Source of the DNA: an uncultured virus (IMG/VR IMGVR_UViG_3300029288_000154)
Lineage: Duplodnaviria; Heunggongvirae; Uroviricota; Caudoviricetes
Strand: one strand, 5' to 3'
IMG/VR virus record: IMGVR_UViG_3300029288_000154
Length of the DNA stretch: 64,000 nt
The notes under the pieces are model-generated. The model worked only from the letters and a program-made list of their open reading frames with translations, was not told the DNA's origin and searched no databases. The translations under genes and the position numbers were made by a program. Positions 2,109-64,000 of the stretch are shown here, in pieces (the stretch's first letter is position 1; each line of letters starts with the position of its first letter).

Positions 2109-2375
2109 TTGAAACTTGAAACAAAACTTCACAAATTCTATACAACTAGTTATAAACTAATGTTTGAACCAGATGTTGATGATTGTGAAACTTTGTTGAG
2201 TTGTATCGCAAGAAATCACGAAAACGATGGAACTCATTGGTTAATTGAACAACTTAAGTTTGATGAAGATGATATTCATATTTACAAACATAATTTGTTT
2301 GGTTATATTTTATCTTTTGGAAAACAACATTATAAGTATTCGCGATTCAAAGCAAAGTTTAAGAATGAAACTTAA
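2109..2375 (+). CDS. Small MKI-family protein
   Basis: TTG start, MKLETKL...YSRFK; clear paralog of 3049..3294 (IHI..H..FGYI.SF.K). Confidence 0.6.
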   Translation: MKLETKLHKFYTTSYKLMFEPDVDDCETLLSCIARNHENDGTHWLIEQLKFDEDDIHIYKHNLFGYILSFGKQHYKYSRFKAKFKNET

Positions 2376-2622
2376 AACATATATTTCGTTTTCTTCCTCG
2401 GCAGCATCTCCACAAGGAACGACATATATTATTTTTGGCGACGTTAGACTACTCATAAACAAAACAATTAGTATTTTATTTAGTTCGGTTTTTATGAAAA
2501 ATCATTCATCATTTATTGTTAAAACTATATCTGTGCTAGATTATGAGAAATTGAGAGTTATTATAAAATATTATAGAAATCTAAAATACGAATATAAAAA
2601 ACTTCAGGAATTTCAACTATGA
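2365..2622 (+). CDS. Small MKI-family protein
   Basis: MKLKTYI...YEKLR; start re-called from 2245 to ATG 2365 overlapping upstream stop. Confidence 0.6.
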   Translation: MKLKTYISFSSSAASPQGTTYIIFGDVRLLINKTISILFSSVFMKNHSSFIVKTISVLDYEKLRVIIKYYRNLKYEYKKLQEFQL

Positions 2623-2789
2623 AAATAACATTATCAATCTCTACATTTTCTGGAAATTCATTTTTAATTTATACCGGAGATGTTAATGATGGAAAACGTG
2701 GACTTGATTTGCTAGATGTTGATTACATTAACGGAGTGGAAGTCTATAGAAAAACAACATCAAATAGATTGAAGAGGTGGGTTTTGTGA
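2619..2789 (+). CDS. Small MKI-family protein (56 aa, below ORF-track cutoff)
   Basis: Hand translation MKITLSISTF...SNRLKRWVL; ATGA overlap upstream, GTGA overlap downstream. Confidence 0.6.
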   Translation: MKITLSISTFSGNSFLIYTGDVNDGKRGLDLLDVDYINGVEVYRKTTSNRLKRWVL

Positions 2790-3052
2790 AAATTGAAACA
2801 AAGATAGATTATTATTCGGAAATTGACTTAGTAAAAGTTAATACTAATTTAATAGCCATTTATAATTATATTGGTCATTATTGTGAAATTTATTTCAAAA
2901 CTACCAAACACGTTGAACATATTTCAAAAAGAACCCCGGATATAAATTACAAAAAACTAAGATTTGTCACAAGAAAACACGCAGAACTTATGATAATAAT
3001 GAACAAATTTGAAGAAATAAAAAAAGAAATGGACGAAATGTCGTTATCATGA
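2786..3052 (+). CDS. Small MKI-family protein
   Basis: GTG start, KIETKI...YKKLRF. Confidence 0.6.
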   Translation: MKIETKIDYYSEIDLVKVNTNLIAIYNYIGHYCEIYFKTTKHVEHISKRTPDINYKKLRFVTRKHAELMIIMNKFEEIKKEMDEMSLS

Positions 3053-3294
3053 AAATTGAAACTAAAATACAAAAATATTATTACTCTAATTTTTACTTCA
3101 AACATGGACTTGGAAGTTTCGCGGATTTAATAGCTAAAAGAGAATGCTATTTAGATTTGACGAAGCATTCGTATTATTTTGATAAAGAGTCGTGCTTAAA
3201 TATAGAAAATCCAAAAATTCACATAATGCGCCACAAAACCTTTGGTTACATAGTTTCATTTGACAAAATTTACCGAACAGAAAGATTTCAATGA
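3049..3294 (+). CDS. Small MKI-family protein
   Basis: MKIETKI; ATGA overlaps at both ends. Confidence 0.6.
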   Translation: MKIETKIQKYYYSNFYFKHGLGSFADLIAKRECYLDLTKHSYYFDKESCLNIENPKIHIMRHKTFGYIVSFDKIYRTERFQ

Positions 3295-4169
3295 GTTTCA
3301 AAGAACAATATATGCCCGCCACAAAAAGAAAATCTATCACACATCTTTATGATGAAAAGAATCCAATGAAACCTTTGGATTTCATTTCTTTTTGTGAAAC
3401 CGTCAAATCAAAAGGCTATATTCTTTCAGACAAAAATTCCAAGTTTTCAGAAAAGATAGATGGTTTTGGTTTTCGTTTTGGAAAAGATTCGCACCAAAAT
3501 TTCTTCATCGAATCTTCTAACTCCGGACCAATCTTTTCTCCGGGGTGTTTCAGAAACTATTCAATTCAAAAACATGGAAGTTCAAATGAAATAACAGAAG
3601 CATACGAACAACTATTTGATATTTTAAGTTCTGATAAAAAATTGAATTTTGTTTTGGATAATTATAAAGATGGAATTAAAGTCATCTGCGAATGCCTGTT
3701 CACTTCTCTTGGGAAAAAGAACAACGTAAAACGAAAATTTGTTTGTATTGAATATGACGAAGACAAACTCGGAACCGTGGCAACATTTTCTATCATAAAA
3801 ATAGAAGATGCTTATGGAAACGAATTGAATTGCGTAGATGAAATTTTGGAATTGAGCAATAATAAAATCAAAATTGTTTCAAGTTATTTCAAAGATTTTC
3901 AAATAGATTTCAAGAAACAAGTTGATGAAGTTTTGAACATTGTTGATACTAAACAAATCTTAACCAATCTAAAAAGAGATGAAGAATCAATAAGACAACG
4001 AAATGAATTGAAAGAACGATTGCTGAAAATACAAAAGCAGATGAAAGATTGTGTTTTGGAAAAGTTTAATGTTGGAATGCTGGGAAATGAATATGAAGGG
4101 TTCGTTTTAACAGTAGATGATTTTGTTGTTAAGTTTGTAACCGAACACTTTACGAATGGTAAGAAATGA
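3291..4169 (+). CDS. RNA-ligase-like covalent nucleotidyltransferase (DUF6267-like phage protein)
   Basis: Motif I SEKIDG, EGFVL (motif IV-like), VKFV (motif V-like), N-terminal ITHL. Confidence 0.65.
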   Translation: MSFKEQYMPATKRKSITHLYDEKNPMKPLDFISFCETVKSKGYILSDKNSKFSEKIDGFGFRFGKDSHQNFFIESSNSGPIFSPGCFRNYSIQKHGSSNEITEAYEQLFDILSSDKKLNFVLDNYKDGIKVICECLFTSLGKKNNVKRKFVCIEYDEDKLGTVATFSIIKIEDAYGNELNCVDEILELSNNKIKIVSSYFKDFQIDFKKQVDEVLNIVDTKQILTNLKRDEESIRQRNELKERLLKIQKQMKDCVLEKFNVGMLGNEYEGFVLTVDDFVVKFVTEHFTNGKK

Positions 4170-4321
4170 AAATAACCGCTAAAATTAAAAAAGATGACGG
4201 GCGGTGGGTTTTTGAAAAAGGATTGTATGTTATCTTTAGTTATTTGTTAGTTTTTGTTCCTGAAATTAAAATATTCAAAACAAATTATTTCCACAAAAGA
4301 ATGATGAAATATGAAAATTAA
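4166..4321 (+). CDS. Small MKI-family protein (51 aa)
   Basis: Hand translation MKITAKIKK...HKRMMKYEN. Confidence 0.55.
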   Translation: MKITAKIKKDDGRWVFEKGLYVIFSYLLVFVPEIKIFKTNYFHKRMMKYEN

Positions 4322-4574
4322 GATGAATCTAATAATGAAATGTGGTGATATTCAATTCATTTCGTCAGTTTCGTTGTTTAATACTTATCTCCATCCAAGA
4401 TTAAGAAAATATGAAAATTAGAGCGAAGATAACCACACAAAACTCTGCCACCTGTCGGCCTGGAAAAATGTATAATTTGTTGTTCATTTTTGGAACATTG
4501 CTAGTAAGTATTCAACAAGAACCACCGTATTTGAAATTTGTTTATAGTAGTAGGATGAACAAATATGAAAATTA
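4307..4574 (+). repeat. Three exact copies of AAATATGAAAATTA at ORF junctions
   Basis: Copies at 4307-4320, 4407-4420 and 4561-4574; each encodes KYEN-stop in one frame and MKI in another. Confidence 0.85.
4311..4421 (+). CDS. Small MKI-family protein (36 aa)
   Basis: MKIKMNLI...HPRLRKYEN. Confidence 0.5.
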   Translation: MKIKMNLIMKCGDIQFISSVSLFNTYLHPRLRKYEN

Positions 4575-4575
4575 A
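4411..4575 (+). CDS. Small MKI-family protein (54 aa)
   Basis: MKIRAKIT...SSRMNKYEN. Confidence 0.55.
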   Translation: MKIRAKITTQNSATCRPGKMYNLLFIFGTLLVSIQQEPPYLKFVYSSRMNKYEN

Positions 4576-4765
4576 AACGGGTGTAAAAGAAGAAGGCGAC
4601 GATGTTTGTTTTTATTTAATCAACATTGACAAGAAATTAAAAACTGGATATATTTGTTCGGATTTCCCGCAAGATTTTCTTATTTTTAGAACAACCATAA
4701 ATTTTTCAAAAAGAAGATTTCAAAAATTGTTTAGAGAGAAGATTCAAGAAGTTTTTATTGACTAA
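4565..4765 (+). CDS. Small MKI-family protein
   Basis: MKIKTGV...KRRFQKL. Confidence 0.55.
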   Translation: MKIKTGVKEEGDDVCFYLINIDKKLKTGYICSDFPQDFLIFRTTINFSKRRFQKLFREKIQEVFID

Positions 4766-4769
4766 ATAT

Positions 4770-4919
4770 ATGAAAATAACAACAAAAATAGTTATGGTAC
4801 CTTGGATAAATATTTATATCATTGGTCCGGTTGTTTTAACATCCGCAAATCATACATTTAGAGCTGGCCCGAAAAGAATGGAAAGGTATTATATTGGAAA
4901 CATACAGAGATTTGAGTGA
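4770..4919 (+). CDS. Small MKI-family protein (49 aa)
   Basis: MKITTKIV...PKRMERY. Confidence 0.55.
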   Translation: MKITTKIVMVPWINIYIIGPVVLTSANHTFRAGPKRMERYYIGNIQRFE

Positions 4920-5424
4920 CAGAATAGTTTGGTGTTTCTCCGATACACATTTCTATCATACAAACGTGATTGGTTTTTGTTCTCGTCCATTTTTAACAAC
5001 AAATGAAATGAATGAAACAATGTTCAACAATTGGAATTCAACAGTGTCAGAAGATGATGTTGTTTTGTTTCTTGGTGATTTTGTTGTTGGTTCTGGAAAG
5101 TTTGGAATTGAAAAAGGAGAAGCTTCAAAAATCATTTATGACAATTTGAATGGTGAGAAAATATTCATAAGAGGAAATCATGACAAGGGAGTAACAACCA
5201 TTCCATATCATGAAGACCCAACAATGAAAATTTCTTACAAAGGACATTCATTTCTTTTGTCGCATCATCCAATAACTGTGTTTTCCGCAAACTTTCTTTT
5301 GCATGGTCATATACACAACTCGCAACATGAAATAAGAAATTGTAAAAGAGCGTTTAATTGCGGTGTTGAAGACCTTAATTACAAACCAATAAATTTAGAT
5401 GATGTAATAGAAAAATTGAAATAA
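4894..5424 (+). CDS. Calcineurin-like metallophosphoesterase (true start may be TTG 4912)
   Basis: SDTHFYH, LGDF, RGNHD, SHHP, HGHIH motifs. Confidence 0.9.
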   Translation: METYRDLSDRIVWCFSDTHFYHTNVIGFCSRPFLTTNEMNETMFNNWNSTVSEDDVVLFLGDFVVGSGKFGIEKGEASKIIYDNLNGEKIFIRGNHDKGVTTIPYHEDPTMKISYKGHSFLLSHHPITVFSANFLLHGHIHNSQHEIRNCKRAFNCGVEDLNYKPINLDDVIEKLK

Positions 5425-5444: not shown

Positions 5445-5600
5445 AACCGTTTCATCAAATCTACATAACATGTGTTTGCCACAATTTTGTAGATATAATT
5501 TCTTGTTTCATAGACGAGCACTGTTCAATTAAGAACTGCAATCTATCATCTCCACAAGCGTAACTTTCCGTAGAACTTACGGTAGTTGAATTTTCATCCA
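5425..5600 (-). ncRNA. Predicted TnpB omegaRNA (right-end RNA) with flank-derived guide TTATTTTACCTTGTTTTAATTG
   Basis: tnpB 3' end (TVSSTESYACG...SSMKQE) then ATCTACA...TGTAGAT hairpin ending GAAACGG, typical of an IS607-type right end; boundaries approximate. Confidence 0.6.
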
Positions 5601-6762
5601 AATGTTTGTCTATCAACCAGAGGCCAAAGAACTGGAGATTTTTCGTAGCGTTGACATCTCTATCATGTTCTGCTCCACATTTCTTACAAGTCCATTCTCT
5701 GTCGGATAGTTTTAATTCTTTATATTTTGTTCCACAAGATGAACAGAATTTAGATGAAGCATAAAACTGATGAGCTTGAATTAAATGTATTCCAGCCCAC
5801 TCACATTTATACTTCAGTAATTCTTTAATCTTGCCAAATGAAGAATCTAATATAGCTCCTGCGAGTTTATGATTTTTCACCATGTTGTTTGGCTTCAATG
5901 TTTCTATCACAATCATCTTTGGCTTGGTTTTCACCAACGATGTGGTTAATTTGTGAATAGAATCGTTACGAACATCCCCAATTTTCTTATGAACTTTCGC
6001 TAATTTTGTTACGGATTTTCTCCTATTCTTGCTTTCTTTTTGTTTTCGCGAAACTCTTCTCTGATATCTCTTAAGTTTCTTTAGATACTTACGATAAGTT
6101 TTAGGATTCTCAAAAGTCTGACCATCAGAAGTTATGGCTAATTCTTTTATACCTAAATCCACTCCGAGAACATCTTCCTGATGGATTTGGTGAACGGCGG
6201 CTAAGTCCGGGGCATCAATTTCTTCTTTTAGCAGAAATGAAACAAACCATCTATCAGCTTGCCGGAATATGGTTGCTTGTGTTAGTTTAACTCGCCATTC
6301 TAAGATAGGATAACATTTTTCTTTCAGTCTAACTTTACCAAATGTAGGTAATTGAATATGAGTTGGTGATAAATAGACAGAACCGTCAAGACGAAACGAA
6401 TCTTTCGCACCTCGTTTCTTATATTTTGGGTAATTTGATGTTTTTGAAAAGAATCTTTTAAAAGCTTTTTCTAAATTTCTAAGCGCTTCTTGCCCACAGC
6501 ACTTTGAAACGTCGTAAATCCATGGATTGTCTTTCTTAAAACAACACCATTCTTTGTGCCAGTCAATCGCCGAGCCAAGTTTACATTTAGGCTTTTCTAA
6601 ACCCAGTTCTTTAGCATCTTTCTTAGCTATTTCGTATCTTTCAGTAAGTTTGTGAAGCATCCAGTTATAGGCAAATCTTGCTGTTCCTGCACTTTTAACA
6701 CACAAAGCCCGTTGAGTTTTATTCAATTTCAGTTCAAGCCTATAACCTCTATATACTACCAT
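5461..6762 (-). CDS. tnpB: TnpB RNA-guided endonuclease (IS607/IS605 family), RuvC triad intact
   Basis: N-terminal RGYRLELKLN...AGTARFAYNW; RuvC GVDLG, IVIETL, DRDVNA; Zn finger CSSC...CKKC. Confidence 0.95.
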   Translation of the reverse strand: MVVYRGYRLELKLNKTQRALCVKSAGTARFAYNWMLHKLTERYEIAKKDAKELGLEKPKCKLGSAIDWHKEWCCFKKDNPWIYDVSKCCGQEALRNLEKAFKRFFSKTSNYPKYKKRGAKDSFRLDGSVYLSPTHIQLPTFGKVRLKEKCYPILEWRVKLTQATIFRQADRWFVSFLLKEEIDAPDLAAVHQIHQEDVLGVDLGIKELAITSDGQTFENPKTYRKYLKKLKRYQRRVSRKQKESKNRRKSVTKLAKVHKKIGDVRNDSIHKLTTSLVKTKPKMIVIETLKPNNMVKNHKLAGAILDSSFGKIKELLKYKCEWAGIHLIQAHQFYASSKFCSSCGTKYKELKLSDREWTCKKCGAEHDRDVNATKNLQFFGLWLIDKHLDENSTTVSSTESYACGDDRLQFLIEQCSSMKQEIISTKLWQTHVM

Positions 6763-8798: not shown

Positions 8799-8809
8799 GA
8801 AATTTTCAC

Positions 8810-8838
8810 TTGAAACTAAATTTCCCCAAAGATAAAAA
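8810..8838 (+). promoter_or_regulatory. sigma70-type promoter of CCAAAGATAAAA class
   Basis: TTGAAA-17-TAAAAA with the CCAAAGA spacer shared with 44117 and 44498. Confidence 0.5.
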
Positions 8839-8887
8839 TAAAAGAAGAGAAGGCGTGATACCCTTCCTAAATCAAAGGACAATAACA

Positions 8888-15407: not shown

Positions 15408-16238
15408 TTGTTAACTTTAATTTCGTCCTTATTGGCAAGCCCTAATTTTTATTCGTTCATTATTTTGCCAACATTTGCGTTTGTTTTAGTTTTAATTTTG
15501 TGGATGATTTCGTTATTGTCTGGAAAAGAAATGAATCTAAGTCTTGGACCATTGAAACTATCTCTTCCTGGTAGAAAAAAGGAAAAGGAAATAAAGACAA
15601 AAGAACAATCTCCTGTAAAAACGGCGAATCAGACTTTGTTAATAGCAAGATTACAAAGTTTTATTGTAGAGAAGCAGAAATTGATTTTTAGAACTCATGT
15701 GGAAAATACCGAAAGACAGATGAATTTCTTTGATGAAAAACTTGTTGAAATTCGTTCTTTATACATTGAAGAATATGCGAGATTGTTAGAGAAGAAAACA
15801 GAGAGTCATATTGATGTAAGGAATCACCAAGAGTTCAGAAATTACCGAATGATGGTTGATTTGATGTTAGAAGATATAAAAACAAAAACTTACAAGAAAT
15901 CAATCAAACAGAATCACTTAGCTGACATTACGATGGAACTTTGGGAATCGTTTGTTGAGCAAAAAGTTAATGTTACTCTAGCGATGATTAAAGATTATTT
16001 TGACAATAACTATCCAGATGATATGACAATTACCCGCCGGGAAATTGATGAAGCAAACGAAAGAGTTTTTGATAAATGTCGGTCGTTGTTTACATTATCT
16101 TACAGGAGAGCCAGAGAGATTGCTATCGAAACGCGAACAAAAATCAAATACATTGAGGATGAGATAGAGAGAGAAGTTAGAGAAGAGAATATTCATTTGT
16201 CTCGCATAGATTCCAATGAATTAGAAAGTTTGTCGTGA
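15408..16238 (+). CDS. N-terminally membrane-anchored helical protein
   Basis: Hydrophobic FIILPTFAFVLVLILWMISLL then charged helical region. Confidence 0.65.
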   Translation: MLTLISSLLASPNFYSFIILPTFAFVLVLILWMISLLSGKEMNLSLGPLKLSLPGRKKEKEIKTKEQSPVKTANQTLLIARLQSFIVEKQKLIFRTHVENTERQMNFFDEKLVEIRSLYIEEYARLLEKKTESHIDVRNHQEFRNYRMMVDLMLEDIKTKTYKKSIKQNHLADITMELWESFVEQKVNVTLAMIKDYFDNNYPDDMTITRREIDEANERVFDKCRSLFTLSYRRAREIAIETRTKIKYIEDEIEREVREENIHLSRIDSNELESLS

Positions 16239-16471
16239 AATTAAAAATGTTTATTAGAAATGGTGTTGTTGATATGTTTAGAGTTGTTACAAGGGCAACC
16301 TTATCTTCAAACATAATAAAAACTACAATTCATAGATTTTATACGTGCGGAAAGTTAACAGGACAATATTCCCCGGACAGACTTAAGAAAAATGCGAGAT
16401 TGGTTACAAAAGGTGTGAAGATTTTTATTGAAAATGGGCAGTGGAAGATAAGACAAGAAAGGTTTATGTAA
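16235..16471 (+). CDS. Small MKI-family protein
   Basis: GTG start, KLKMFI...PDRLKK. Confidence 0.5.
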   Translation: MKLKMFIRNGVVDMFRVVTRATLSSNIIKTTIHRFYTCGKLTGQYSPDRLKKNARLVTKGVKIFIENGQWKIRQERFM

Positions 16472-19525: not shown

Positions 19526-19733
19526 GTTTGAAGATAAATTAAATCATTCAATGTGGTTTCTTAGTTCTCCCAATCAACACATTCTATCTTTCTTTTTTAA
19601 CAAGAATAACCTTTTTGTTAGCTTCTTCGGATATTGTAATGGGTTCTCGGTTACTTCATTTATAAATTCTATTAGAGATATTCGTAAGTTTACAAAAATA
19701 ACAAAAAACACAAAAACTTTGCTTGACAAATAA
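19509..19733 (+). CDS. Small MKI-family protein
   Basis: TTG start, KITLKF...RDIRKF. Confidence 0.5.
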   Translation: MKITLKFEDKLNHSMWFLSSPNQHILSFFFNKNNLFVSFFGYCNGFSVTSFINSIRDIRKFTKITKNTKTLLDK

Positions 19734-34751: not shown

Positions 34752-34752
34752 A

Positions 34753-44145: not shown

Positions 44146-44190
44146 AATAGCATATCCCTCTTCAACGGGATAAACTACGAAAGGTGAAAT

Positions 44191-44494: not shown

Positions 44495-44497
44495 ATT

Positions 44498-44526
44498 TTG
44501 AATTTCTTTTCCTCCAAAGATAAAAT
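44498..44526 (+). promoter_or_regulatory. sigma70-type promoter of CCAAAGATAAAAT class
   Basis: TTGAAT-17-TAAAAT. Confidence 0.75.
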
Positions 44527-44544
44527 AACTTTAGAGGACTCTGT

Positions 44545-47317: not shown

Positions 47318-47342
47318 CTTGGAAAAAATAAGAGAGTAAATT
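47314..47342 (+). promoter_or_regulatory. sigma70-type promoter (GCTTGACTTG class)
   Basis: TTGACT-17-TAAATT. Confidence 0.7.
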
Positions 47343-48415: not shown

Positions 48416-48471
48416 CTTTGGAAAATTAACAATTATTACAAGCATAAACGAATCTTTTCAAAAAATTTTAA

Positions 48472-48500
48472 TTGCCTTGTTAAAAATAACGGGGTATATT
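48472..48500 (+). promoter_or_regulatory. sigma70-type promoter
   Basis: TTGCCT-17-TATATT followed by GCCC-AAAGTG-GGGC hairpin. Confidence 0.65.
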
Positions 48501-51603: not shown

Positions 51604-52043
51604 CAGCAACTAATTATTATTAATTAACAACATATATTATCAATATTTGTTCTATATATGTTGTTCGCAGAATGTGGATTTGCCACTTCATCAACAAATT
51701 TCCTGCATTACACAAAAATTCGTGGAAGAGTTTGGGGAAGGAATCAATCCCAGTTTGGTTTGCTGCGGCATTTTCTCCAATTCCTGGATTTGGAATTTTG
51801 ATGATGTGTCTTTTGACAAGGGATTTTTCTTTTCGTTATTATAAACCGAAAGTAATAATGAAAATAAATTATCTTGGAAAAGTGGATGTTGGGTATGCCC
51901 CGAAATATCTAAAACCCGAAAACATAAACAAATTTTTGTATGAATATCAAATCCTAGACGAATACAAATACAAACAAACTTCCAGATTAACAAAAGCATT
52001 GTCTGGAAACTTCCTCAAACAGAAAGAAAATAAGCATGTATAA
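51600..52043 (+). CDS. Membrane protein with MKI-like C-terminal part; in-frame TAA at 51621 near 5' end
   Basis: WFAAAFSPIPGFGILMMCLL then KVIMKI...SRLTK. Confidence 0.4.
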
Positions 52044-52626
52044 CAATCTTCCAATGCCTACGGTTATTGAACGAGTCGGAAATACTGAAAAATATTACGA
52101 CCTTATTTCTAAACACTTTGAACATCGCAACGTCTTTCTTGTTGGCGGTGTGAATCAAGCTTCCGCATTTACCGTAATCGCCCAGCTCATGTATTTGGAT
52201 TCTCAGGATTCGTCTACACCTATCAATTTTTACATCAGTTCAAACGGAGGAAGTGTTATTGATGGTCTCGCCATTCTCGATACTATGAATACTATCAAAG
52301 CACCGATTAACATGATTGGTTTTGGTGTGTGTGCGTCAATGGGGGCGTTTCTTCTCGCTTCCGGAAAGAAATGTGAAAAATCATCAAGAAAAGGTCTAAA
52401 AAACATTCAAATTATGACTCACCACGTTTCTGGTGGAGCTGGCGGACAAGCGTCAGATATTGTTATAACAGCAAAGCAGATGACTAAGTTGAACGACCGT
52501 CTAAAGAATTATATGGAAAAGTTTACCAACCAATCCTCCGAAGAAATCGACCGCATCTTCGCAAGAGATTATTGGATGGATGCTGATGAAGCCCTTAAAC
52601 TGGGACTAATCGATGGTGTGATTTGA
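52036..52626 (+). CDS. clpP: ClpP protease proteolytic subunit
   Basis: IAQLMYL, YISSNGGSV, CASMGAFLL (Ser), IMTH (His), RDYWM (Asp), GLID. Confidence 0.95.
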   Translation: MYNNLPMPTVIERVGNTEKYYDLISKHFEHRNVFLVGGVNQASAFTVIAQLMYLDSQDSSTPINFYISSNGGSVIDGLAILDTMNTIKAPINMIGFGVCASMGAFLLASGKKCEKSSRKGLKNIQIMTHHVSGGAGGQASDIVITAKQMTKLNDRLKNYMEKFTNQSSEEIDRIFARDYWMDADEALKLGLIDGVI

Positions 52627-52862
52627 AATTTGGCATTGTCATTTCGGATTGGATGGAGTTTGGTTTTGTTGCCATCCAATTCAACAGCAACACAAACATA
52701 ATGTGTGAAAAAATAATATTCAACAAAGACGAAAATGTAACAAAAGATAATTATAAAAATTTTCACGATGATAATATTTTCAAAGAAACGGTATTCGTGA
52801 AAAAGAATGTAATTATAAACGTAGTCCGCCACGGATTAAAATTGGAGAGAATCAAATGTTAG
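52623..52862 (+). CDS. Small protein, divergent MKI-family member
   Basis: TTG start overlapping clpP stop, KFGIVI...NVVRH. Confidence 0.45.
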   Translation: MKFGIVISDWMEFGFVAIQFNSNTNIMCEKIIFNKDENVTKDNYKNFHDDNIFKETVFVKKNVIINVVRHGLKLERIKC

Positions 52863-53613: not shown

Positions 53614-54042
53614 ATGAAAAGATTTTGTATTATCTCAGGTCACGGCTTTATGGCTGGATTTAATTTTGAAAACGAAGAGAACGAAAAGAATCTGATAAAC
53701 AAAATTGGTCACGTTTGGGAATATTATCATAACGATTTTCGAATTATGTTTTCCGGTGAGGGAGAACTTAAATTATTTGGCCCGAATAATATGTGGAACA
53801 AAATTTATACATCTGATGATTTTTGCGAATGGTTGAAAGATATAATTGAATTGAAAACGTCTACATTTGTTCTCCAAGAAAGAAGCAAACAAATCTATGT
53901 TGACCAAATGGATGAATCCCCGTTGAGAAAACATTTATTCAAGAAATTGATAGAACAGGCAGAAAAAGAATTGGAAAGAGATAAGAAATTTATCGAACAA
54001 TTGAACCGGTTAATAAAAGATATTAAGGAGTTTTCAATATGA
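53614..54042 (+). CDS. Hypothetical protein
   Basis: AAGGA SD, 142 aa. Confidence 0.6.
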   Translation: MKRFCIISGHGFMAGFNFENEENEKNLINKIGHVWEYYHNDFRIMFSGEGELKLFGPNNMWNKIYTSDDFCEWLKDIIELKTSTFVLQERSKQIYVDQMDESPLRKHLFKKLIEQAEKELERDKKFIEQLNRLIKDIKEFSI

Positions 54043-54176
54043 AGATTTCGTTATATTTGACAGGGCGGTCGTTGTTTTATTGTATAAACGATAACCATAA
54101 GTCCTGGCAATTTTTCTCATTGGGTAACGGATATTCTCATGATTATACCGTTAGAAACAAATTTGGAATTTGTTAA
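54039..54176 (+). CDS. Small MKI-family protein (45 aa)
   Basis: MKISLYL...VRNKFGIC. Confidence 0.55.
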   Translation: MKISLYLTGRSLFYCINDNHKSWQFFSLGNGYSHDYTVRNKFGIC

Positions 54177-54358
54177 TGAAAATAAAGCTTAAAATTACAC
54201 AGGATTGTTTGTTTTATAGTTATGACATAATTAACAATAAACCAAAAAGAAAACAACAAACGTTTTCGGCTGAATTGAAACATTTGTCGTTTACTGGCTG
54301 TATTAGAAGAAACAAATATAGATTCGTTTCGTCAGTTAACAACGTTTGGGACTGGTAG
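54176..54358 (+). CDS. Small MKI-family protein
   Basis: MKIKLKI...IRRNKYRF. Confidence 0.55.
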   Translation: MKIKLKITQDCLFYSYDIINNKPKRKQQTFSAELKHLSFTGCIRRNKYRFVSSVNNVWDW

Positions 54359-54360: not shown

Positions 54361-54573
54361 GTGAAAATAAAATTATTGTTACACCACGATGATTATTACA
54401 AATACAATTTATATTGTCTTCAAACTTGTGTGCGTGGAAAATTTGTAAATATGAGTCAATTACATATTTTACAACCTATGTTTGGATATCATGAGAAAAT
54501 AAGAAAACAATTTGGAATTTGCTACTATGCGCGAAACCCTAAATGTCAATCATACAGAAAGAAGCACCAATGA
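54361..54573 (+). CDS. Small MKI-family protein
   Basis: GTG start, KIKLLL...IRKQFGIC. Confidence 0.55.
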   Translation: MKIKLLLHHDDYYKYNLYCLQTCVRGKFVNMSQLHILQPMFGYHEKIRKQFGICYYARNPKCQSYRKKHQ

Positions 54574-55004
54574 AAGCTCTTGAATATACCGGACCACGTT
54601 GCGACCAAGCAGTCGATATCGCCATTTTCAATTCAACCATGACTGAAATTCTTCTTGGTCGTAAAGAACACCAACCTCATTTTCGTTTCATTGGTGGGTT
54701 CTCTTCAGTTGATTCAGATTCCCTTGAAGAAGATGCCATAAGAGAAGTTGAAGAAGAAACTGGATTGGTTGTTGAAAATCCAGCATATGTCGGAAGTCGC
54801 AAAGTTGACGACCCAAGATACCACGGAACAATTCACGCAATCAAAACGTGCTTGTTCTTTACTATTGGTTATGAAGGAACAGCAAAAGCTAACGATGATA
54901 TTTTTGAAGTCAAATGGTTTCCGGTTGACGTATTCCTAAGAATGGAAATGATGCCGGAACATATGAAGCTTCGGGATATGATTGTTCGTTCGGGGGTTGT
55001 GTGA
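54570..55004 (+). CDS. Nudix hydrolase (NadM/NrtR-type ADP-ribose pyrophosphatase-like)
   Basis: AVDIAI, ILLGRK, FIGGF...REVEEETGL, ANDD...KWF, EH. Confidence 0.85.
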   Translation: MKALEYTGPRCDQAVDIAIFNSTMTEILLGRKEHQPHFRFIGGFSSVDSDSLEEDAIREVEEETGLVVENPAYVGSRKVDDPRYHGTIHAIKTCLFFTIGYEGTAKANDDIFEVKWFPVDVFLRMEMMPEHMKLRDMIVRSGVV

Positions 55005-55228
55005 AGATAATATTAAACATTTCAAAACGACCTGTTAACTATAGAGAAAATCAAGCAGCGTTGTTTTTCTTAACCTCCGATGATATGAACGTTCCAACGA
55101 GGTTGTTATTCGAACATTTTAAGATTGAAAATATTTACGAAATTATAGACCATTCGGAGAAATTTCTAAAGAGAATGAAATGTTATGATGAGTTTAACGA
55201 ATATTATTTTGGAAAGAAACCAGAATGA
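55001..55228 (+). CDS. Small MKI-family protein
   Basis: GTG start, KIILNI...LKRMKC. Confidence 0.6.
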   Translation: MKIILNISKRPVNYRENQAALFFLTSDDMNVPTRLLFEHFKIENIYEIIDHSEKFLKRMKCYDEFNEYYFGKKPE

Positions 55229-59360: not shown

Positions 59361-59615
59361 ATGATTGTTAATATTTTCAAAAGATTATTAGGGAAAAAGA
59401 ACCACAAACTTGTATTTAAGTGGAGTAAACGCCCATACATAATAAAAGCCGGACATTTTATATGGAATACTGTGGGATATGACGGACACACTCCAAAACC
59501 AATAGCTGTTAAATTAAATGTCGCAAGAGAAACGGTAATTTTTGAAACAGAAAATAAGTTACATAGACGCGGACTTACCATAATGAATCATCCACGTATG
59601 AGAAAATGGCAATGA
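59361..59615 (+). CDS. MKI-family protein with amphipathic N-terminal extension
   Basis: NIFKRLLG then KLVFKW...HPRMRKW. Confidence 0.6.
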   Translation: MIVNIFKRLLGKKNHKLVFKWSKRPYIIKAGHFIWNTVGYDGHTPKPIAVKLNVARETVIFETENKLHRRGLTIMNHPRMRKWQ

Positions 59616-59875
59616 TTAAAAAGTTTATTCGTAAAATTTTCCGTAGAGAGAAAATACTGAAAATAACTACAAAAATTGAAACAAAGATGGCTTTACGAAC
59701 AGCATTCACAAATCCGGCTATTTGTTACTATCATGTTAATTTTGTATTTAGAAAACGACACAATAATAAATTTTATATTAAGCTAATTACCTTTTATCAT
59801 TTCTATCTAAGAACCAAATCGTTTTCTAATAATTATGCTGATTTCAAACGGCTTCACAAATGGGATTCTAGGTGA
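59612..59875 (+). CDS. MKI-family protein with amphipathic N-terminal extension
   Basis: MIKKFIRKIF then KITTKI...FKRLHKW. Confidence 0.6.
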   Translation: MIKKFIRKIFRREKILKITTKIETKMALRTAFTNPAICYYHVNFVFRKRHNNKFYIKLITFYHFYLRTKSFSNNYADFKRLHKWDSR

Positions 59876-59991
59876 AAATTTCCATATCTTTTGTCGATGG
59901 TTATATTCAAAAAACACCCGCTTATTCTTCTCTCGTTTCATCTTTCTTCAACAAATTTAATTCAAGGATGCTGAAATGGAAATCGCGTTAA
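59872..59991 (+). CDS. Small MKI-family protein (39 aa)
   Basis: GTG start, KISISF...SRMLKW. Confidence 0.5.
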   Translation: MKISISFVDGYIQKTPAYSSLVSSFFNKFNSRMLKWKSR

Positions 59992-60275
59992 ATGATTGTA
60001 TTGGTATTCTGTTCATCAAAACAAAACATCTAAAAGAAACCTATCGTGTTGTTTATCTAACTTCTCTTGATGAACTTTATTACGATGACATTCTTGAAAA
60101 AATGACAACGGACGCTAATGTGGTTTTAGAAAATGCTCGAATTTTATTTTCAGATTCGCCGGTTCTTCTTTCGAGAGAACTTGCGTATTCTGTTGCAGAC
60201 GAAATTCAAATTGAAAAGAAATCCAAACAAGGAATTAAATTGATTTCTATTCCAACAACGGATGATGAATTTTGA
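59976..60275 (+). CDS. Hypothetical protein with HEAT-like motif
   Basis: ARILFSDSPVLLSRELAYSVA. Confidence 0.55.
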   Translation: MEIALNDCIGILFIKTKHLKETYRVVYLTSLDELYYDDILEKMTTDANVVLENARILFSDSPVLLSRELAYSVADEIQIEKKSKQGIKLISIPTTDDEF

Positions 60276-60433
60276 GAATCAAATTAAAACTGAGAATGGG
60301 CTATTCTTTTGATAACACCTGTCATTTCTTTTTATTTGCCGAGACCGATTCTGAAAAAAATTTGGAATACAAAATGTCAAGATGGTTTAGATTTCAAACA
60401 ACAAAAACAAAACGATTGAGAAAATATAAATGA
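60272..60433 (+). CDS. Small MKI-family protein (53 aa)
   Basis: TTG start, RIKLKL...KRLRKYK. Confidence 0.55.
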   Translation: MRIKLKLRMGYSFDNTCHFFLFAETDSEKNLEYKMSRWFRFQTTKTKRLRKYK

Positions 60434-60666
60434 TTAATAATTTTTTTAAAAAATTATTTTGTAGCGAAAGAGCAACAACAAAAATTATAACTCTGATTGA
60501 ACTAAATAAATTAAACACAGACTCAATTGACGTTTACTTTATTTTTAAGAATTTACAAAAAAGAACATTTAAAATAATAGCTTATGGATATTGTAACCAA
60601 ATTCAGTTTTTCACAAGCGGATATGATAAATTTCCAAGACTTCATAAATGGACGAAAAACAAATGA
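60430..60666 (+). CDS. MKI-family protein with amphipathic N-terminal extension
   Basis: MINNFFKKLF then KIITLI...FPRLHKW. Confidence 0.6.
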   Translation: MINNFFKKLFCSERATTKIITLIELNKLNTDSIDVYFIFKNLQKRTFKIIAYGYCNQIQFFTSGYDKFPRLHKWTKNK

Positions 60667-60815
60667 AAATTAACATGATGTTTTACTACGAATGTTTAAG
60701 AAATGATAATCAATGTTATCCGGGGTTCTTGATTTCCAATTCTTTTATTTATAGCGTAACAAAAAACACATGCTTGTTAAAAAGAATGGAGAAATGGAAA
60801 TGCGAATTGGATTGA
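60663..60815 (+). CDS. Small MKI-family protein (50 aa)
   Basis: MKINMMF...LKRMEKW. Confidence 0.55.
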   Translation: MKINMMFYYECLRNDNQCYPGFLISNSFIYSVTKNTCLLKRMEKWKCELD

Positions 60816-60952
60816 TTTGGCATGTGAGTAGAGTGAGAGATGAATATTCTAGATTTGGTTTTTACATTCCATTTGAAGGCTGTCGCGTATCTTTTGATTT
60901 TTGCGGCGGAAACAAAACAAGAAAAGATAGATATCAAATTAAGATAACATGA
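60800..60952 (+). CDS. Small MKI-family protein (50 aa)
   Basis: MRIGLIW...KDRYQ. Confidence 0.5.
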   Translation: MRIGLIWHVSRVRDEYSRFGFYIPFEGCRVSFDFCGGNKTRKDRYQIKIT

Positions 60953-61119
60953 TACTTAAAACAGCATTTATTCAATATCAAAACGTAACCAAGGTCAAAT
61001 TTACATGTGATGTATTTTATATTTTCGTTGCTTCTGAAAATAAATATTACATTCTAGATTTCTGTCCACCACCAAAAAGATTAGAAAAATATAACAAATT
61101 TGAGATTTTTAACAAATGA
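60949..61119 (+). CDS. Small MKI-family protein (56 aa)
   Basis: MILKTAF...PKRLEKY. Confidence 0.55.
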   Translation: MILKTAFIQYQNVTKVKFTCDVFYIFVASENKYYILDFCPPPKRLEKYNKFEIFNK

Positions 61120-61295
61120 AAATAAAACTAAAAATATTTCCAGATTATTACGGATATAACTTTGATATGGTCCATACAAAGTTCTGTATTGATTTTGAAG
61201 ACGACCCGCGTGGAGTTTTCTGGTTCAAAAAATTAACGACCAGATTTGTGAAGATGTATAAACAAGAAATTAAACTAAACAACTATTATAACTAA
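61116..61295 (+). CDS. Small MKI-family protein (59 aa)
   Basis: MKIKLKI...TTRFVKM. Confidence 0.55.
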   Translation: MKIKLKIFPDYYGYNFDMVHTKFCIDFEDDPRGVFWFKKLTTRFVKMYKQEIKLNNYYN

Positions 61296-61304: not shown

Positions 61305-62741
61305 ATGAGCAACTTTGAAAAACTAATGAAAATGTATAACGTGATTGCGAAACTCGGAACAACGTCAGCTATTCTTTCATACGACCAGCAGGTAAATATG
61401 CCCGAAGCCGGAGCAGAATATCGTGGAGATGTTCTTGAGATGATTTCTATTTCAATTGCCAAACAGTTGAAATCTACGAAATTCAATAAGCTTCTTCAAT
61501 CGTGTCTTTCAGATTCTTCTCTTTCGCCAGACCAAATGCTGATTGTTAAAGATATTGACAACTCCACAAAGTTTTCCAATAGAATTCCTGTTTCTCTTCA
61601 TGGCAAACTGTCAAAAGCTCAATCTAAATGTTCTGCGGAATGGGAAAAGGTTAAGCTTAAGAAGACAAATGATAAAAAGTATCTAAAACTCCTTGACAAC
61701 TATGTAAAGCTCGCCAAACAATCTATTTCTTATGCCAACCAAGGTGAATTCACAACTCCCTACGATTATCTTCTTTATGGTTATTCCAAAGGATTCACAT
61801 GCGAAAAGATCGAGTCTGTTTTCAATCAACTGAAGCCTTTTGTAGATTCTTCTCTTCAAAAGCTAAACAACGCAACCGAATCAAAAGAATTCTCAAAGCC
61901 GGACCACGAAGTTCTTGAATTTTGCGAATCGGTGATGACAGAAATTACTGGAACACCTGAAAAAGTTCGTCTAGCAAAATCTACACATCCGTTCTGCTCA
62001 ACATTGGGAAGAAATGATATTAGAATTACAACCCGAATCAAACCAGGAAACATTCTCGACGCAATTGGTTCAACAGTTCATGAATCCGGACATGCTACTT
62101 ATGAAGCTGGATTAGATTCGGAAAATTATGGAAATTGCCTCGGCTCTGCTGCTTCCATTGCCGCTCACGAAGGAATCTCTCTATTTTACGAAAAACACGT
62201 TGGTGAATCAGAACAAATGGCGACGAAGATTTCCGAAGAACTTGGTTTCGAATTTGATGATGTTCTTTCTTGGATGCGCGAAATCAATTCTGAAAATCTA
62301 ATCAGAACAGAATCAGATGAAATCACCTACCAGAGGCACATCATCAATCGGTTCACTATCGAAAAAGAATTGTTTAATAGTGATTTGAAAGTGAAAGACA
62401 TTCCGGCTCGTTGGAACGAACTTTACGGAAAAGATTTGTCTCCAGAAGTTGGGTATGCTGTTGATGTTCATTGGAGTAACGGAAGCTTTGGATACTTTCC
62501 TTCTTACACACTCGGACATCTAATCGCTGCTCAACTTAGAAATAAAATGGAACAAGAAATCTCTCTGTTCAACGGAAACGAAATCAACTATGAAGGAATT
62601 CGTAATTGGCTTTCTGAAAACTATTTCAAACACAGTGGAAGATACGGAACAGATGAACTTGTAAAAATTGCTACCGGTGAAGAACTAAATGCTGAACATT
62701 GGATTCGTTTCATCACTAACAAATTTAACATCGGAGAATAA
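61305..62741 (+). CDS. M32 carboxypeptidase (carboxypeptidase Taq family)
   Basis: HPFC, DIRITTR, HESGHATYE, HEG, IRTESDE, DVHWS.G.FGYFPSYTLG. Confidence 0.95.
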   Translation: MSNFEKLMKMYNVIAKLGTTSAILSYDQQVNMPEAGAEYRGDVLEMISISIAKQLKSTKFNKLLQSCLSDSSLSPDQMLIVKDIDNSTKFSNRIPVSLHGKLSKAQSKCSAEWEKVKLKKTNDKKYLKLLDNYVKLAKQSISYANQGEFTTPYDYLLYGYSKGFTCEKIESVFNQLKPFVDSSLQKLNNATESKEFSKPDHEVLEFCESVMTEITGTPEKVRLAKSTHPFCSTLGRNDIRITTRIKPGNILDAIGSTVHESGHATYEAGLDSENYGNCLGSAASIAAHEGISLFYEKHVGESEQMATKISEELGFEFDDVLSWMREINSENLIRTESDEITYQRHIINRFTIEKELFNSDLKVKDIPARWNELYGKDLSPEVGYAVDVHWSNGSFGYFPSYTLGHLIAAQLRNKMEQEISLFNGNEINYEGIRNWLSENYFKHSGRYGTDELVKIATGEELNAEHWIRFITNKFNIGE

Positions 62742-62743
62742 TA

Positions 62744-63037
62744 ATGAAAACTAAATGGACTTCCCCAAAAGACAAAATCCTTCAAATTGAAAAATCTTTG
62801 GAAATAAAGAGGCTTAAAACTAAAATAAATTCAAAAATAAAAACTAATCGTCAATATGTTCATTTTGTTAATGTCGGTAGGGATGTTTATGAGATTTCAT
62901 TTCAGGGATTAGACATTTATATAAGTCATAACAACAAACCCGAACTAATAAACGATATATGCCTTAAAACATTAGAGCTTATTGTTTTAGAAATAGAGGA
63001 AGACAGGTGTGAAGCGGACCCATCGTATCAATGGTAA
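62744..63037 (+). CDS. Hypothetical protein
   Basis: GGAG SD; helical C-terminus. Confidence 0.55.
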   Translation: MKTKWTSPKDKILQIEKSLEIKRLKTKINSKIKTNRQYVHFVNVGRDVYEISFQGLDIYISHNNKPELINDICLKTLELIVLEIEEDRCEADPSYQW

Positions 63038-63070
63038 TACTAGAAAATAACATTTTTGTAGAATAATAAA

Positions 63071-63298
63071 ATGAAAATTAAAACATCGTTTGTTTTTGAA
63101 ACAATATATTTTCTTGGCGGCCCGCGCGATTTGGTAACTATCAACTTTGAAAAAACTTCAATACAGCAAAATGGTATTGGTGAATGGTTATTATGTTTCA
63201 ACAACTCAAATCTAAAAATAAATCGTATTTTGTTAGATACGTCAGAACTACAAAGAAAACATTTCAAAATTGTTAGGATGATATTAAATGAAGATTAA
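63071..63298 (+). CDS. Small MKI-family protein
   Basis: MKIKTSF...FKIVRM. Confidence 0.55.
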   Translation: MKIKTSFVFETIYFLGGPRDLVTINFEKTSIQQNGIGEWLLCFNNSNLKINRILLDTSELQRKHFKIVRMILNED

Positions 63299-63473
63299 GT
63301 TGAAATTTACACAGCACGCTTTTTGTTTTGGTAGCGCAGGACCTATGAAATACGAACTTCAGGTTACCTTATTTGAGTTGGAACATAGAGACAAATTTAT
63401 AATTCCCATGACATCCCGTGATTCCTTACAAAAAGCTTATGAAACTTTCAAAAGAAGAATGAAATTAAAATGA
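63288..63473 (+). CDS. Small MKI-family protein
   Basis: MKIKLKF...TFKRRMKLK. Confidence 0.6.
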   Translation: MKIKLKFTQHAFCFGSAGPMKYELQVTLFELEHRDKFIIPMTSRDSLQKAYETFKRRMKLK

Positions 63474-63751
63474 AAATAATTTTAATGGTTGAACATTTTG
63501 ATAATAAATCTCCAAGAGTTTCAATTCACCATGATAAAATTGAATGGAAGAAATATTCCGAAGCATTTGGGTGTACATCCGATGGATTGAATTATGCATC
63601 AACAAGTAAAAAATCCGTGACATCCCATCTTCTATATTACATCAACAACTCTCACACATTTTTCAAAATCAACAACATAAATATATCAAGATTTTTAAAA
63701 TTTCTTGATAAAACGAAATTCAAAATATTTGAAAATAACAACTATAATTGA
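63470..63751 (+). CDS. Small MKI-family protein
   Basis: MKIILMV...SRFLKF. Confidence 0.55.
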   Translation: MKIILMVEHFDNKSPRVSIHHDKIEWKKYSEAFGCTSDGLNYASTSKKSVTSHLLYYINNSHTFFKINNINISRFLKFLDKTKFKIFENNNYN

Positions 63752-63923
63752 CAATAGTTTTGATATACTATGTATTACTTTTGGGTTGTCAACTCAAATT
63801 TCTGAAAACTTACAAGTTACGGAAAGTGAGTTAAATAAACATAACAAGTTTCTAATCCCCGAGTTCAATTGTAAAGTTTATAAATCCTATGTTACTTTCA
63901 AAAGAAGAATGAAACTCCTGTGA
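63705..63923 (+). CDS. Small MKI-family protein
   Basis: KITTII...LQVT..EL...KF.IP...TFKRRMKLL; close paralog of 63288..63473. Confidence 0.6.
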   Translation: MIKRNSKYLKITTIIDNSFDILCITFGLSTQISENLQVTESELNKHNKFLIPEFNCKVYKSYVTFKRRMKLL

Positions 63924-64000
63924 AAATACAATTGAAAGTTTATAAAATACCTGGAAACGATACTTGGGCGATTTTAATAGATGGCTTAGGGTTAAATAAT
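63920..64000 (+). CDS. MKI-family protein, 3'-truncated by window edge
   Basis: GTG start overlapping TGA, KIQLKV... Confidence 0.45.
   Translation, partial: MKIQLKVYKIPGNDTWAILIDGLGLNN

Follow-up and report, generated by a model that had tools for sequence, protein, structure and literature searches.

The 64,000-nucleotide (nt) stretch of DNA analyzed here, referred to as the window at its full length, comes from an uncultured virus (IMG/VR record IMGVR_UViG_3300029288_000154) and carries, dispersed over at least 14 slots between conserved phage genes, a set of 52 small open reading frames (ORFs) of 36-139 amino acids (aa), all on the plus strand, plus a 53rd that is cut by the window end. 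The window is AT-rich, with a G+C content (GC) of 0.29-0.43 per 2 kb, and 138 of its 165 modeled ORFs lie on the plus strand, so that it forms one long plus-strand gene chain. Its proteins include a T4-type clamp loader (phrog_168, E 7.6e-94), which is at most 45% identical to GenBank phage proteins, those of cyanophage T4-likes being the best; the contig that carries the window's own proteins is 305,169 bp long, and we therefore take its source to be an uncultured T4-type giant phage. By gene count the mini-genes account for about one third of the coding strand (52 of ~140 genes in 64 kb).

A preliminary description of this DNA had proposed some 50-55 such mini-genes, arranged in clusters and as singletons; the count was borne out and all of these clusters and singletons were recovered. 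Candidates were drawn from the coordinates of that description together with a scan for ORFs of at least 30 aa opening with NTG-K-[IL], which returned 64 matches on the plus strand and 14 on the minus strand. Forty-four of the 64 are among the 52 candidates, and the other 20 were excluded as internal starts of longer genes or as overlaps in another frame. Two short terminal motifs characterize the set: an N motif, here the pattern ^MK[ILVMF].[ILMVFTAS].[ILMVF], and a C motif, a 7-mer near the other end of the protein (approximately F-K-R-M-x-K-Y/W) that was scored with a position-specific scoring matrix (PSSM). Both are found in 21 candidates, only the N motif in 20, only the C motif in seven, and neither in four. 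The members are as follows.

2109-2375, plus: N and C motifs (MKLETKL...), paralog of 3049
2365-2622, plus: N and C motifs; start uncertain (2245, 2263 or 2365)
2619-2789, plus: N motif only
2786-3052, plus: N motif only; NYKKLRF mid-protein
3049-3294, plus: N motif only; paralog of 2109 (phmmer E 2e-7)
4166-4321, plus: N and C motifs; end ...KRMMKYEN, 11-nt overlap with the next start
4311-4421, plus: 36 aa, N and C motifs; shortest form (strand, strand, helix)
4411-4575, plus: N motif; C score 7.0, slightly below threshold
4565-4765, plus: N and C motifs
4770-4919, plus: N and C motifs; hydrophobic core, one of two transmembrane-like members
16235-16471, plus: singleton, N motif only; slot empty in the relative (see below)
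19509-19733, plus: singleton, N motif only; slot empty in the relative
21268-21498, plus: N motif only
21498-21770, plus: N motif only
21770-22028, plus: member split over two frames; N motif in 21770-21895, C motif YSKLRKL in 21858-22028
22029-22262, plus: N motif only
22222-22641, plus: doubtful member, 139 aa, MKIVEMS; neither motif passes
22631-22840, plus: N and C motifs
22830-23126, plus: N and C motifs
23514-23738, plus: N and C motifs (YKKLRYL)
23735-23926, plus: N and C motifs (YKKLRKL); end of a chain, without a coupled downstream gene
24134-24322, plus: N and C motifs
24306-24518, plus: N and C motifs
25660-25881, plus: N motif only
25878-26135, plus: MKIFWKF (W at position 5), C motif
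26152-26391, plus: MKIVWRI, C motif (NYRKL)
26400-26621, plus: N-extended member, HKIEIKI internal after a 20-aa extension; C score 7.5
26634-26867, plus: MKIQWTI; C score 7.4 (NYRKL)
30319-30597, plus: trio subgroup (NFYKRMKF), N and C motifs; external homologs exist
30587-30847, plus: trio subgroup, N and C motifs
30844-31083, plus: trio subgroup, N and C motifs; structure modeled (see below)
34552-34713, plus: singleton, N motif only; slot empty in the relative
36282-36494, plus: singleton, N motif only; slot empty in the relative
39668-39841, plus: singleton, N and C motifs (KERMRKW); without a coupled downstream gene
52623-52862, plus: weak member (MKFGIVI, without C motif), immediately 3' of the ClpP gene
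54039-54176, plus: N motif only
54176-54358, plus: N motif only (CIRRNKY)
54361-54573, plus: N and C motifs
55001-55228, plus: N motif; C score 6.1 (FLKRMKC)
59361-59615, plus: N-extended member (MIVNIFKRLL..., internal HKLVFKW), C motif PRMRKW
59606-59875, plus: N-extended member (internal LKITTKI, L = CTG), C motif KRLHKW; paralog of 60430
59872-59991, plus: 39 aa, N and C motifs
59976-60275, plus: doubtful member, neither motif
60272-60433, plus: MRIKLKL, C motif KRLRKY
60430-60666, plus: N-extended member (internal TKIITLI), C motif PRLHKW
60663-60815, plus: N and C motifs
60949-61119, plus: MILKTAF, C motif KRLEKY
61116-61295, plus: N motif only
63071-63298, plus: N motif only
63288-63473, plus: N and C motifs (FKRRMKL); structure modeled, C-terminal helix
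63470-63751, plus: N motif only
63729-63923, plus: N and C motifs; paralog of 63288 (phmmer E 2.6e-9)
63920-64000, plus: 53rd member, truncated by the window end (GTG start, KIQLKVY...)

The N motif separates these genes sharply from their surroundings. It was matched by 41 of the 52 candidates and by none of the 91 other plus-strand genes, so that the M-K-[IL]-x-[TLI]-x-[IL] opening noted at the outset is real. Nor are such openings equally frequent in unrelated genes: among ORFs starting with MK[IL], positions 5 and 7 also fit the pattern in 44/58 on the plus strand of the window, compared with 2/11 on its minus strand and 28/194 in 80 other T4-like viral loci. Expressed as density, the pattern occurs 0.77 times per kb in the window (47 on the plus strand and two on the minus strand) and 0.10 times per kb in 894 kb of other T4-like contigs. 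The second codon base is T at residue 3 in 50 of the 52 and at residue 7 in 48, while third bases vary. In four members (26400, 59361, 59606, and 60430) the motif lies 16-21 residues inside the protein, in the form x-K-[I/L]-x-hydrophobic-x-hydrophobic, and the codons that precede it there (CAT, CAC, CTG, and ACA) are not start codons. The same four share a similar, amphipathic-looking N-terminal extension, M-I-x-N-[I/F]-F-K-[K/R]-L-[L/F], ahead of the usual N strand.

A second constant element emerged when a Gibbs sampler was applied to the last 40 residues, yielding the 7-mer [F/H/Y/I]-x-[R/K]-[R/M/L]-x-[K/R]-[Y/F/W]. Scored by leave-one-out PSSM against a threshold exceeding 95% of shuffles, this C motif was present in 28/52 candidates, 4/91 other genes, and 9/441 minus-strand segments; at the 99% threshold the corresponding figures were 22/52, 1/91, and 1/441. 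Because some candidates had originally been listed for their C ends, the procedure was repeated on the 41 members selected by the N motif only, and the motif was again recovered (20/41 vs. 2/91 at 95%; 13/41 vs. 0/91 at 99%), with a sampler score of 309 for this set and 253-265 in five shuffled runs. The [KR]-[LMI]-[RK]-K signature of the preliminary description was too narrow in its literal form, but pointed to a broader motif that is there. The best C-motif score of any "non-member", that of 21858-22028, turned out to belong to the second half of the N-motif gene 21770, which is split by a frame change. That change falls at a run of five G (~21860) and, read through, the sequence gives an 86-aa member with both motifs; the split could be a pseudogene, a sequencing error, or a programmed shift.

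We considered whether the C motif might be the Shine-Dalgarno (SD) region of the next gene, and this was ruled out by its variable position, by its codons, and by its presence where there is no coupled neighbor. Its Arg residues are encoded by AGA, AGG, CGG, CGT, and CGA, and its Leu residues likewise by several codons. Among the 23 coupled, motif-positive members, the motif precedes the next start by 11 to 92 nt in 22 and falls 13 nt past an internal downstream start in the remaining one; it can be up to 26 residues from the C end. Further, it is as common in members without a coupled downstream gene (5/9) as in those with one (23/43). Its position and its frequency therefore indicate that it is not a by-product of the neighbor's ribosome-binding site. 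Over the first nine residues the strand-type hydrophobic moment is 0.62, compared with 0.26 in 42 other small proteins, supporting the view that the N end behaves as an amphipathic strand, and in the last ~20 residues the helix-type moment peaks at 0.51, compared with 0.34, supporting an amphipathic helix. Judged from sequence, both motifs act at the protein level.

Significant similarity between members is restricted to small groups. By phmmer, links were found within 30319/30587/30844 and between 63288 and 63729, 2109 and 3049, and 59606 and 60430, with weak ones for 4166/4311 and 61116/24306. Thus, the earlier proposal that neighbors resemble each other holds for the first four of these groups, but for 25878/26152/26634 and 54039/54361 it does so at the motif level only. 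In all 10 paralog pairs tested, the proportion of nonsynonymous differences (pN, 0.35-0.46) was below that of synonymous differences (pS, 0.57-0.85), and synonymous sites were saturated or nearly so; 30587 and 30844, for instance, share 52% amino-acid identity at a pS of 0.83. These values indicate old, selected genes. No DNA repeat between members exceeds 47 nt, the only repeats being 25-47 nt segments that encode the ends. The pattern points to a history of ancient duplication with purifying selection, and not to recent duplication or active hypermutation: some neighbors are true paralogs, as had been proposed, but recent local duplication and ongoing diversification are not supported by the pS and pN values or by the lack of long repeats. 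A codon-usage frame test did not discriminate, because spurious open segments of the minus strand also prefer frame 0 (180/209).

Slot occupancy was compared with that of one syntenic relative, a viral contig of 94 kb (CheckV completeness 42%) whose clamp loader is 76% identical; the comparison covers 39.6 kb of the relative. A second metagenome record, with the same 76% clamp-loader match (94,178 vs. 94,443 bp), appears to hold the same relative, and in a metagenome scan with the clamp loader, relatives at 90-97% were found on contigs of 1-2.6 kb only. The mini-gene numbers in each slot are as follows.

After the 609-aa gene: relative 0, window 5 (2263, a sixth start match, belongs to the 2365 gene as an alternative start)
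After the 292-aa gene: relative 1, window 5
16235 slot: relative 0, window 1
19509 slot: relative 0, window 1
After Hsp20: relative 3, window ~11
After thymidylate synthase: relative 6, window 4
After a small Cys-rich gene: relative 2, window 3
34552 slot: relative 0, window 1
36282 slot: relative 0, window 1
After the sigma-factor neighbor: relative 2, window 1
One further slot: relative 1, window 0

Five multi-gene slots are thus occupied in both phages, while five others are filled in the window only, so that the slots are partly shared and partly specific to the window; at 16235 the insert sits precisely at the junction of orthologous genes that otherwise retain their starts and stops. As the relative has such genes in the same slots, the group must be older than the split from this nearest known relative. 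A start pattern used for this comparison occurs 34 times on the plus strand and once on the minus strand of the window, compared with 19 forward and three reverse in the 94 kb of the relative, and the window phage has about double the relative's number of mini-genes. By eye, looser versions of the C motif can be seen in the relative (NFFRRMAKTYE, NFFKRMKIKV, FVSRMTKWFT, and YKKVRKF); the strict motif is a mark of expansions within the window phage and not of the group at large. The Cys-rich gene at 30065-30322 (MPIIEYVCDDC...) is 60% identical to its counterpart at 4120-4377 of locus L095 of the relative (MPIYEYGCEDC...). In each of the two phages it stands directly ahead of a slot with mini-genes, and this conserved arrangement may have a function. 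In the relative, the gene corresponding to the 609-aa gene (278-2107 in the window) consists of two ORFs, 3132-3782 and 3782-4981 of locus L001.

Beyond these two phages, recognizable homologs were found for the trio only (30319, 30587, and 30844). Its profile, searched against 1.84 billion representatives, matched nine proteins at E <=0.001, of which three are the window's own and two are long repetitive proteins that we regard as spurious. The four external homologs (79-96 aa, E 2.3e-8 to 3.5e-5; aligned over the full length in two cases and over most of it in the other two) retain the G-C...S-S...T-C stretch and NFY[K/R]RM[K/N]F-x-[I/L]-D and, in three of them, the MK[I/L] opening. The metagenome contigs that encode them measure up to 88.7 kb, and the proteins are named, where at all, "hypothetical protein"; candidate loci surrounding them proved to be spurious high-GC matches. 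Family-wide profiles searched against 5.8 billion proteins returned only proteins of this contig, as did a single-member search, and tblastn of 30587 against phages gave one chance row (E 0.8). The 52 proteins had no match above curated cut-offs in Pfam, PHROGs, or NCBIfam (best Pfam E 0.0021), the family and trio profiles had no match in the PDB at E values up to 1 and 5, and a limited search of open-access literature gave no description of such a family, all of which agrees with the initial impression that it was not a described one.

The geometry of the chain suggests how the members are expressed. Forty of the 52 overlap the upstream stop (22 by 4 nt and eight by 11 nt), compared with 35/87 other genes, and an SD-like stretch of at least 4 nt precedes 13/52, compared with 46/87. 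Both features had been noticed at the outset; GTG/TTG starts, also remarked upon then, do occur (14/52), but are no commoner than in other genes (23/87). The sequence NTGA at the start (49/52) places a stop in the +1 frame, and NTG-AAR-ATT-(RA or AG), found in 12/52, places stops in both other frames. Because the starts overlap preceding stops, the members are probably made by coupled translation. Between 19000 and 32000, promoter-like sites (62 vs. 58.8 expected) and terminator-like sites (4 vs. 5.3 expected) were at about chance level. A sigma-70-like motif of 40 nt was recovered in four strict plus-strand copies (0.05 expected), or five at a looser match, around CGCTTGACTTG-N-AAAAAATA, with a TTGACT box 17 nt before a TATAAT-like box:

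27876-27915, plus: promoter-like motif
29161-29200, plus: promoter-like motif
42659-42698, plus: promoter-like motif
47299-47338, plus: promoter-like motif
48457-48496, plus: promoter-like motif

These copies are probably the phage's promoters of the host-sigma-70 type, and one precedes the trio by 1.1 kb in the same chain. A second intergenic motif, of 38 nt (TTTTGTTTTGAATTT...CACCAAAGATAAAATAA), has three copies, at 8803-8840, 44110-44147, and 44491-44528.

The other genes of the window include several of nucleotide metabolism (dUTPase, dNMP kinase, nucleoside deoxyribosyltransferase, thymidylate synthase, an IMPDH/GMP-reductase-like enzyme, and dCMP deaminase), as well as Hsp20, two NUDIX proteins, a sigma-70-type factor, patatin, ClpP, a radical-SAM enzyme, and an M32 carboxypeptidase. 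The window also has a load of auxiliary genes that is unusual for a phage:

52036-52626: ClpP (Pfam CLP_protease, E 1.3e-55)
61305-62741: M32 carboxypeptidase
35389-36282: patatin-like phospholipase
27926-28924: IMPDH/GMP-reductase-like enzyme
43503-44120: M50-type peptidase fragment

On the minus strand at 5461-6762, inside the phage gene chain, is a gene of the TnpB/IS605 OrfB type (OrfB_IS605, Cas12f1-like TNB, and HTH domains), which is absent from the syntenic relative, suggesting a mobile element in a lytic-type phage genome. Thymidylate synthase (24515-25401) is in two frames, with the change near 25010: 24515-25150 corresponds to residues 1-166, and 25081-25401 to residues 189-295, of the relative's single 295-aa gene. 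Possible causes of this split are a frameshift, decay into a pseudogene, and an error of assembly. Recoding of stop codons was judged unlikely, as ORFs of 609, 711, 516, and 478 aa are intact under table 11. A DNA search with 31000-36000 of the window found no match among GenBank phages.

We consider it moderately probable that the mini-genes are real, translated genes encoding lineage-specific accessory proteins, expanded slot by slot, with constant ends and variable cores. Each protein opens with a constant amphipathic strand (M-K-I-x-T/L-x-I), continues into a variable, aromatic-rich core, and closes, in about half of the members, with a constant amphipathic basic helix (~F-K-R-M-x-K-Y/W); the genes fill plastic slots between conserved genes of replication and nucleotide metabolism and are probably expressed within long same-strand chains through starts that overlap preceding stops. 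The two constant ends may serve all copies as a common clasp or docking surface within a very small fold, and the variable core may direct each copy to its own target, be it a host protein or a nucleic acid. A structural or docking role of the ends is favored because the N motif is kept when it is internal and because both ends are amphipathic secondary-structure elements. Taken as a whole, the set could serve as a host-takeover or counter-defense repertoire, comparable to the small genes of T4 hyperplastic regions; host takeover, nucleic-acid binding, and a library of binders are all putative functions. Net charge is positive in 46/52 (median +6) and the members are richer in F and Y; given the AT-biased composition, the charge says little in favor of nucleic-acid binding. 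The number of Cys residues is 0-2 in most members, and 3-4 are kept only in the trio. With only 2/52 transmembrane-like, the idea that these are membrane proteins was set aside.

Several results weigh against this reading. Predicted folds were of low confidence throughout: with a 48-row family alignment as input, AlphaFold2 (AF2) gave 30844 a mean predicted local distance difference test (pLDDT) score of 53.6, with four strands and two short helices, and 63288 a mean of 63.7. In the latter, residues 44-58 form a helix that falls in blocks averaging 77-90, and the remainder is poor. For 30587, the model from the ESM Atlas (pLDDT 0.38, without feature hits) was too poor for use. The best Foldseek match of the 63288 model in the PDB (E 1.9, template-modeling score ~0.3) allowed nothing to be drawn from it. 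Jackhmmer, started from eight seeds, never left groups of two or three; in hhalign comparisons of 11 subgroups, 17/55 pairs beat the best reversed-sequence control, the highest probability was 43%, and the aligned stretches were almost always the first 7-20 or the last 8-19 residues. No mini-protein of the relative is detectably similar to any member in the window, and the C-motif PSSM trained on the window was passed by 0/15 N-motif ORFs of the relative, compared with 8/79 others. Within the window, 20/52 members have the N motif alone, and the association of N and C ends was not significant when strict regular expressions were used (p 0.07 and 0.11; [KR][LMI][RK]K, 5/35 vs. 2/57, Fisher p 0.07), the expressions being narrow and the N-negative class containing true members with variant N ends. 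Finally, GC at codon positions 1, 2, and 3 is 0.33, 0.30, and 0.26 in the members, compared with 0.44, 0.32, and 0.31, and a basic composition rich in F, Y, I, K, and N is what AT mutation pressure gives weakly constrained proteins. Of the common beta-meander plus helix scaffold put forward earlier, then, the amphipathic strand and helix ends are supported, but the single fold lacks a confident model; the low-confidence 30844 model suggests a strand-rich core. Ribbon-helix-helix DNA-binding proteins, to which the N-terminal strand drew attention, have such a strand followed by two helices that fill the rest of a 45-55 aa domain. The members had no ribbon-helix-helix match in Pfam, their helix-type amphipathicity is restricted to the last ~20 residues, and the model of 30844, at its low confidence, is mostly strands.

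The strongest rival, although we think it unlikely, is that the bodies are unrelated and only the terminal signals are portable, the MKIxLKI leader directing packaging into the prohead and injection with the DNA as counter-defense factors. The T4-type clamp loader would fit such an explanation, as would the facts that only the ends are common to the members, that the members are small and basic, and that slot contents differ between relatives. The T4 prohead-protease consensus, [LI]xE, was present within residues 1-25 in only 2/41 members, compared with 23/91 other genes, and the T4 late-promoter word was not enriched in the window (8 vs. 5.5 expected). Both tests are soft, because this phage's own protease specificity and late promoter may differ. 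Also against this rival are (i) the N motif lying 16-21 residues from the extreme N terminus in four members, (ii) the second conserved end, the C helix, which has no counterpart in the T4 internal proteins (Ips), (iii) the number of genes (~50 in 64 kb), far above any known Ip set, and (iv) the chaining of these genes with those of nucleotide metabolism. The remaining rivals are weaker. If the mini-genes were instead unrelated or newborn ORFs without homologs (ORFans), their ends might have come to look alike through the constraints of the chain, namely the NTGA overlap, an A-rich initiation region, and AT bias. The predominance of NTGA starts, the stops in both other frames of 12/52, the overlaps with upstream stops, the composition, the lack of detectable similarity between subgroups outside the ends, and the failure of the C motif to replicate in the relative are all in keeping with such convergence. 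However, neither overlap nor initiation needs hydrophobic residues at positions 5 and 7, yet these are present in 76% of MK[IL] openings here and in 14% in other T4-like loci; the N motif is absent from all 91 other chain genes, though 35/87 overlap an upstream stop too; and the motif is kept internally in four members. The C motif is unanchored to the next start, is written in varied codons, and is present without a downstream gene, and pN was below pS in every pair tested, leaving convergence distinctly improbable in our view.

It is also conceivable, although we rate it as very unlikely, that the mini-genes are modular or selfish cassettes which move between slots by recombination at their conserved ends and persist as passengers, in a coding analog of the promoter/stem-loop (PeSL) shuffling for which two reports provide a precedent (PMC2839356, PMC4122927). 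Five slots filled here and empty in the relative (and one the reverse), the exact insertion at 16235, the same 11-nt start-stop overlap at eight junctions, and the end segments of 25-47 nt as the sole DNA repeats all suit mobility. Nonetheless, the five multi-gene slots common to both phages mean that occupancy is mostly ancestral, and the absence of near-identical copies, together with saturated synonymous sites, argues that there was no recent spread. The members are not flanked by promoter or terminator cassettes, as the near-chance site counts indicate, and no nuclease or recombinase is linked to them, the only mobile gene, that of the TnpB type, being unconnected; the selfish mini-gene suggested in the preliminary description thus found no direct support, and two genomes cannot separate gain from loss. 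Least probable of all, and in our opinion extremely so, is that the constant ends are degradation tags for an AAA+ protease, giving the effectors a short, timed life. One N-terminal class of ClpX degrons begins Met-basic-hydrophobic and the MuA-type C-terminal class is basic, which is a lead and not a test. The phage has a ClpP of its own, and ClpX is described as recognizing three N-terminal and two C-terminal degron classes (PMC12723719). Such tags are difficult to reconcile with the absence of a ClpX or adaptor gene from the window, with the internal N motif of four members, and with a C motif that, at up to 26 residues from the C end, would make a poor terminal tag.

A bolder version of the proposal, to which we give only a slim chance, would make the two ends a two-part address that docks perhaps more than 100 effectors, genome-wide, onto one hub (the assembling capsid core, a protease/unfoldase, or a host machine such as the ribosome or RNA polymerase), with the core selecting the target. 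The start sequence NTG-AAR-ATT-RA would let such a cassette sit behind almost any gene and be expressed by termination-reinitiation, and a drop-in start of this kind could explain why singletons lie exactly between conserved genes.

The kind of gene set described here is already known, from hyperplastic regions, from internal proteins that share a leader, and from the zinc-ribbon expansion of phage G; new are the family itself, its two terminal motifs around cores that cannot be aligned, its spread across at least 14 slots, and the large fraction of the genes that it makes up. The T4 internal proteins are mutually dissimilar and share only a capsid-targeting leader; Ip1, Ip2, Ip3, and the products of the polymorphic ip loci of T-even phages are, like the mini-proteins, small, basic, and dissimilar, with a short conserved N end and variation between phages, and are thought to act in counter-defense (PMC12373910, PMC3012670). 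They appear to differ in leader sequence, and they differ in number (three genes in T4 and at least 10 across relatives, compared with ~50 in 64 kb here); the window family differs in turn by its scarcity of [LI]xE sites, its internal N motif in four members, and its second conserved motif. Hyperplastic regions with PeSL shuffling (Arbiol et al. 2010, PMC2839356; Comeau et al. 2014, PMC4122927) are alike in that variable small genes fill slots between core blocks and differ in number between relatives. In contrast, the window mini-genes abut or overlap without promoter/stem-loop cassettes, and they share protein motifs, whereas the ORFans of hyperplastic regions are described as unrelated. Bacillus phage G has a lineage-specific expansion of ~35 zinc-ribbon mini-proteins, for which roles as transcription factors or as structural proteins that bind DNA have been suggested (Iyer et al. 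2021, PMC7824862). That expansion, too, consists of tens of copies of one small protein type in a giant phage, but it forms one array; the window family occupies at least 14 slots, has no zinc ribbon or other known domain (Pfam, PHROGs, NCBIfam), and consists of copies that are far more diverged.

The family was missed by pairwise, jackhmmer, Pfam, and PHROGs searches, and statistics of motif co-occurrence combined with slot comparison were needed to bring it out. Giant phages carry hundreds of small genes without an assigned role. Here, part of the ORFan mass of one such genome becomes a testable family defined by two short, selected terminal motifs. If the ends are a common scaffold, the family would be a natural library of minimal binders; if they are an address, it would represent a much enlarged form of the T4 internal-protein principle. 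Expanded families of mini-proteins may be a general feature of large phage genomes.

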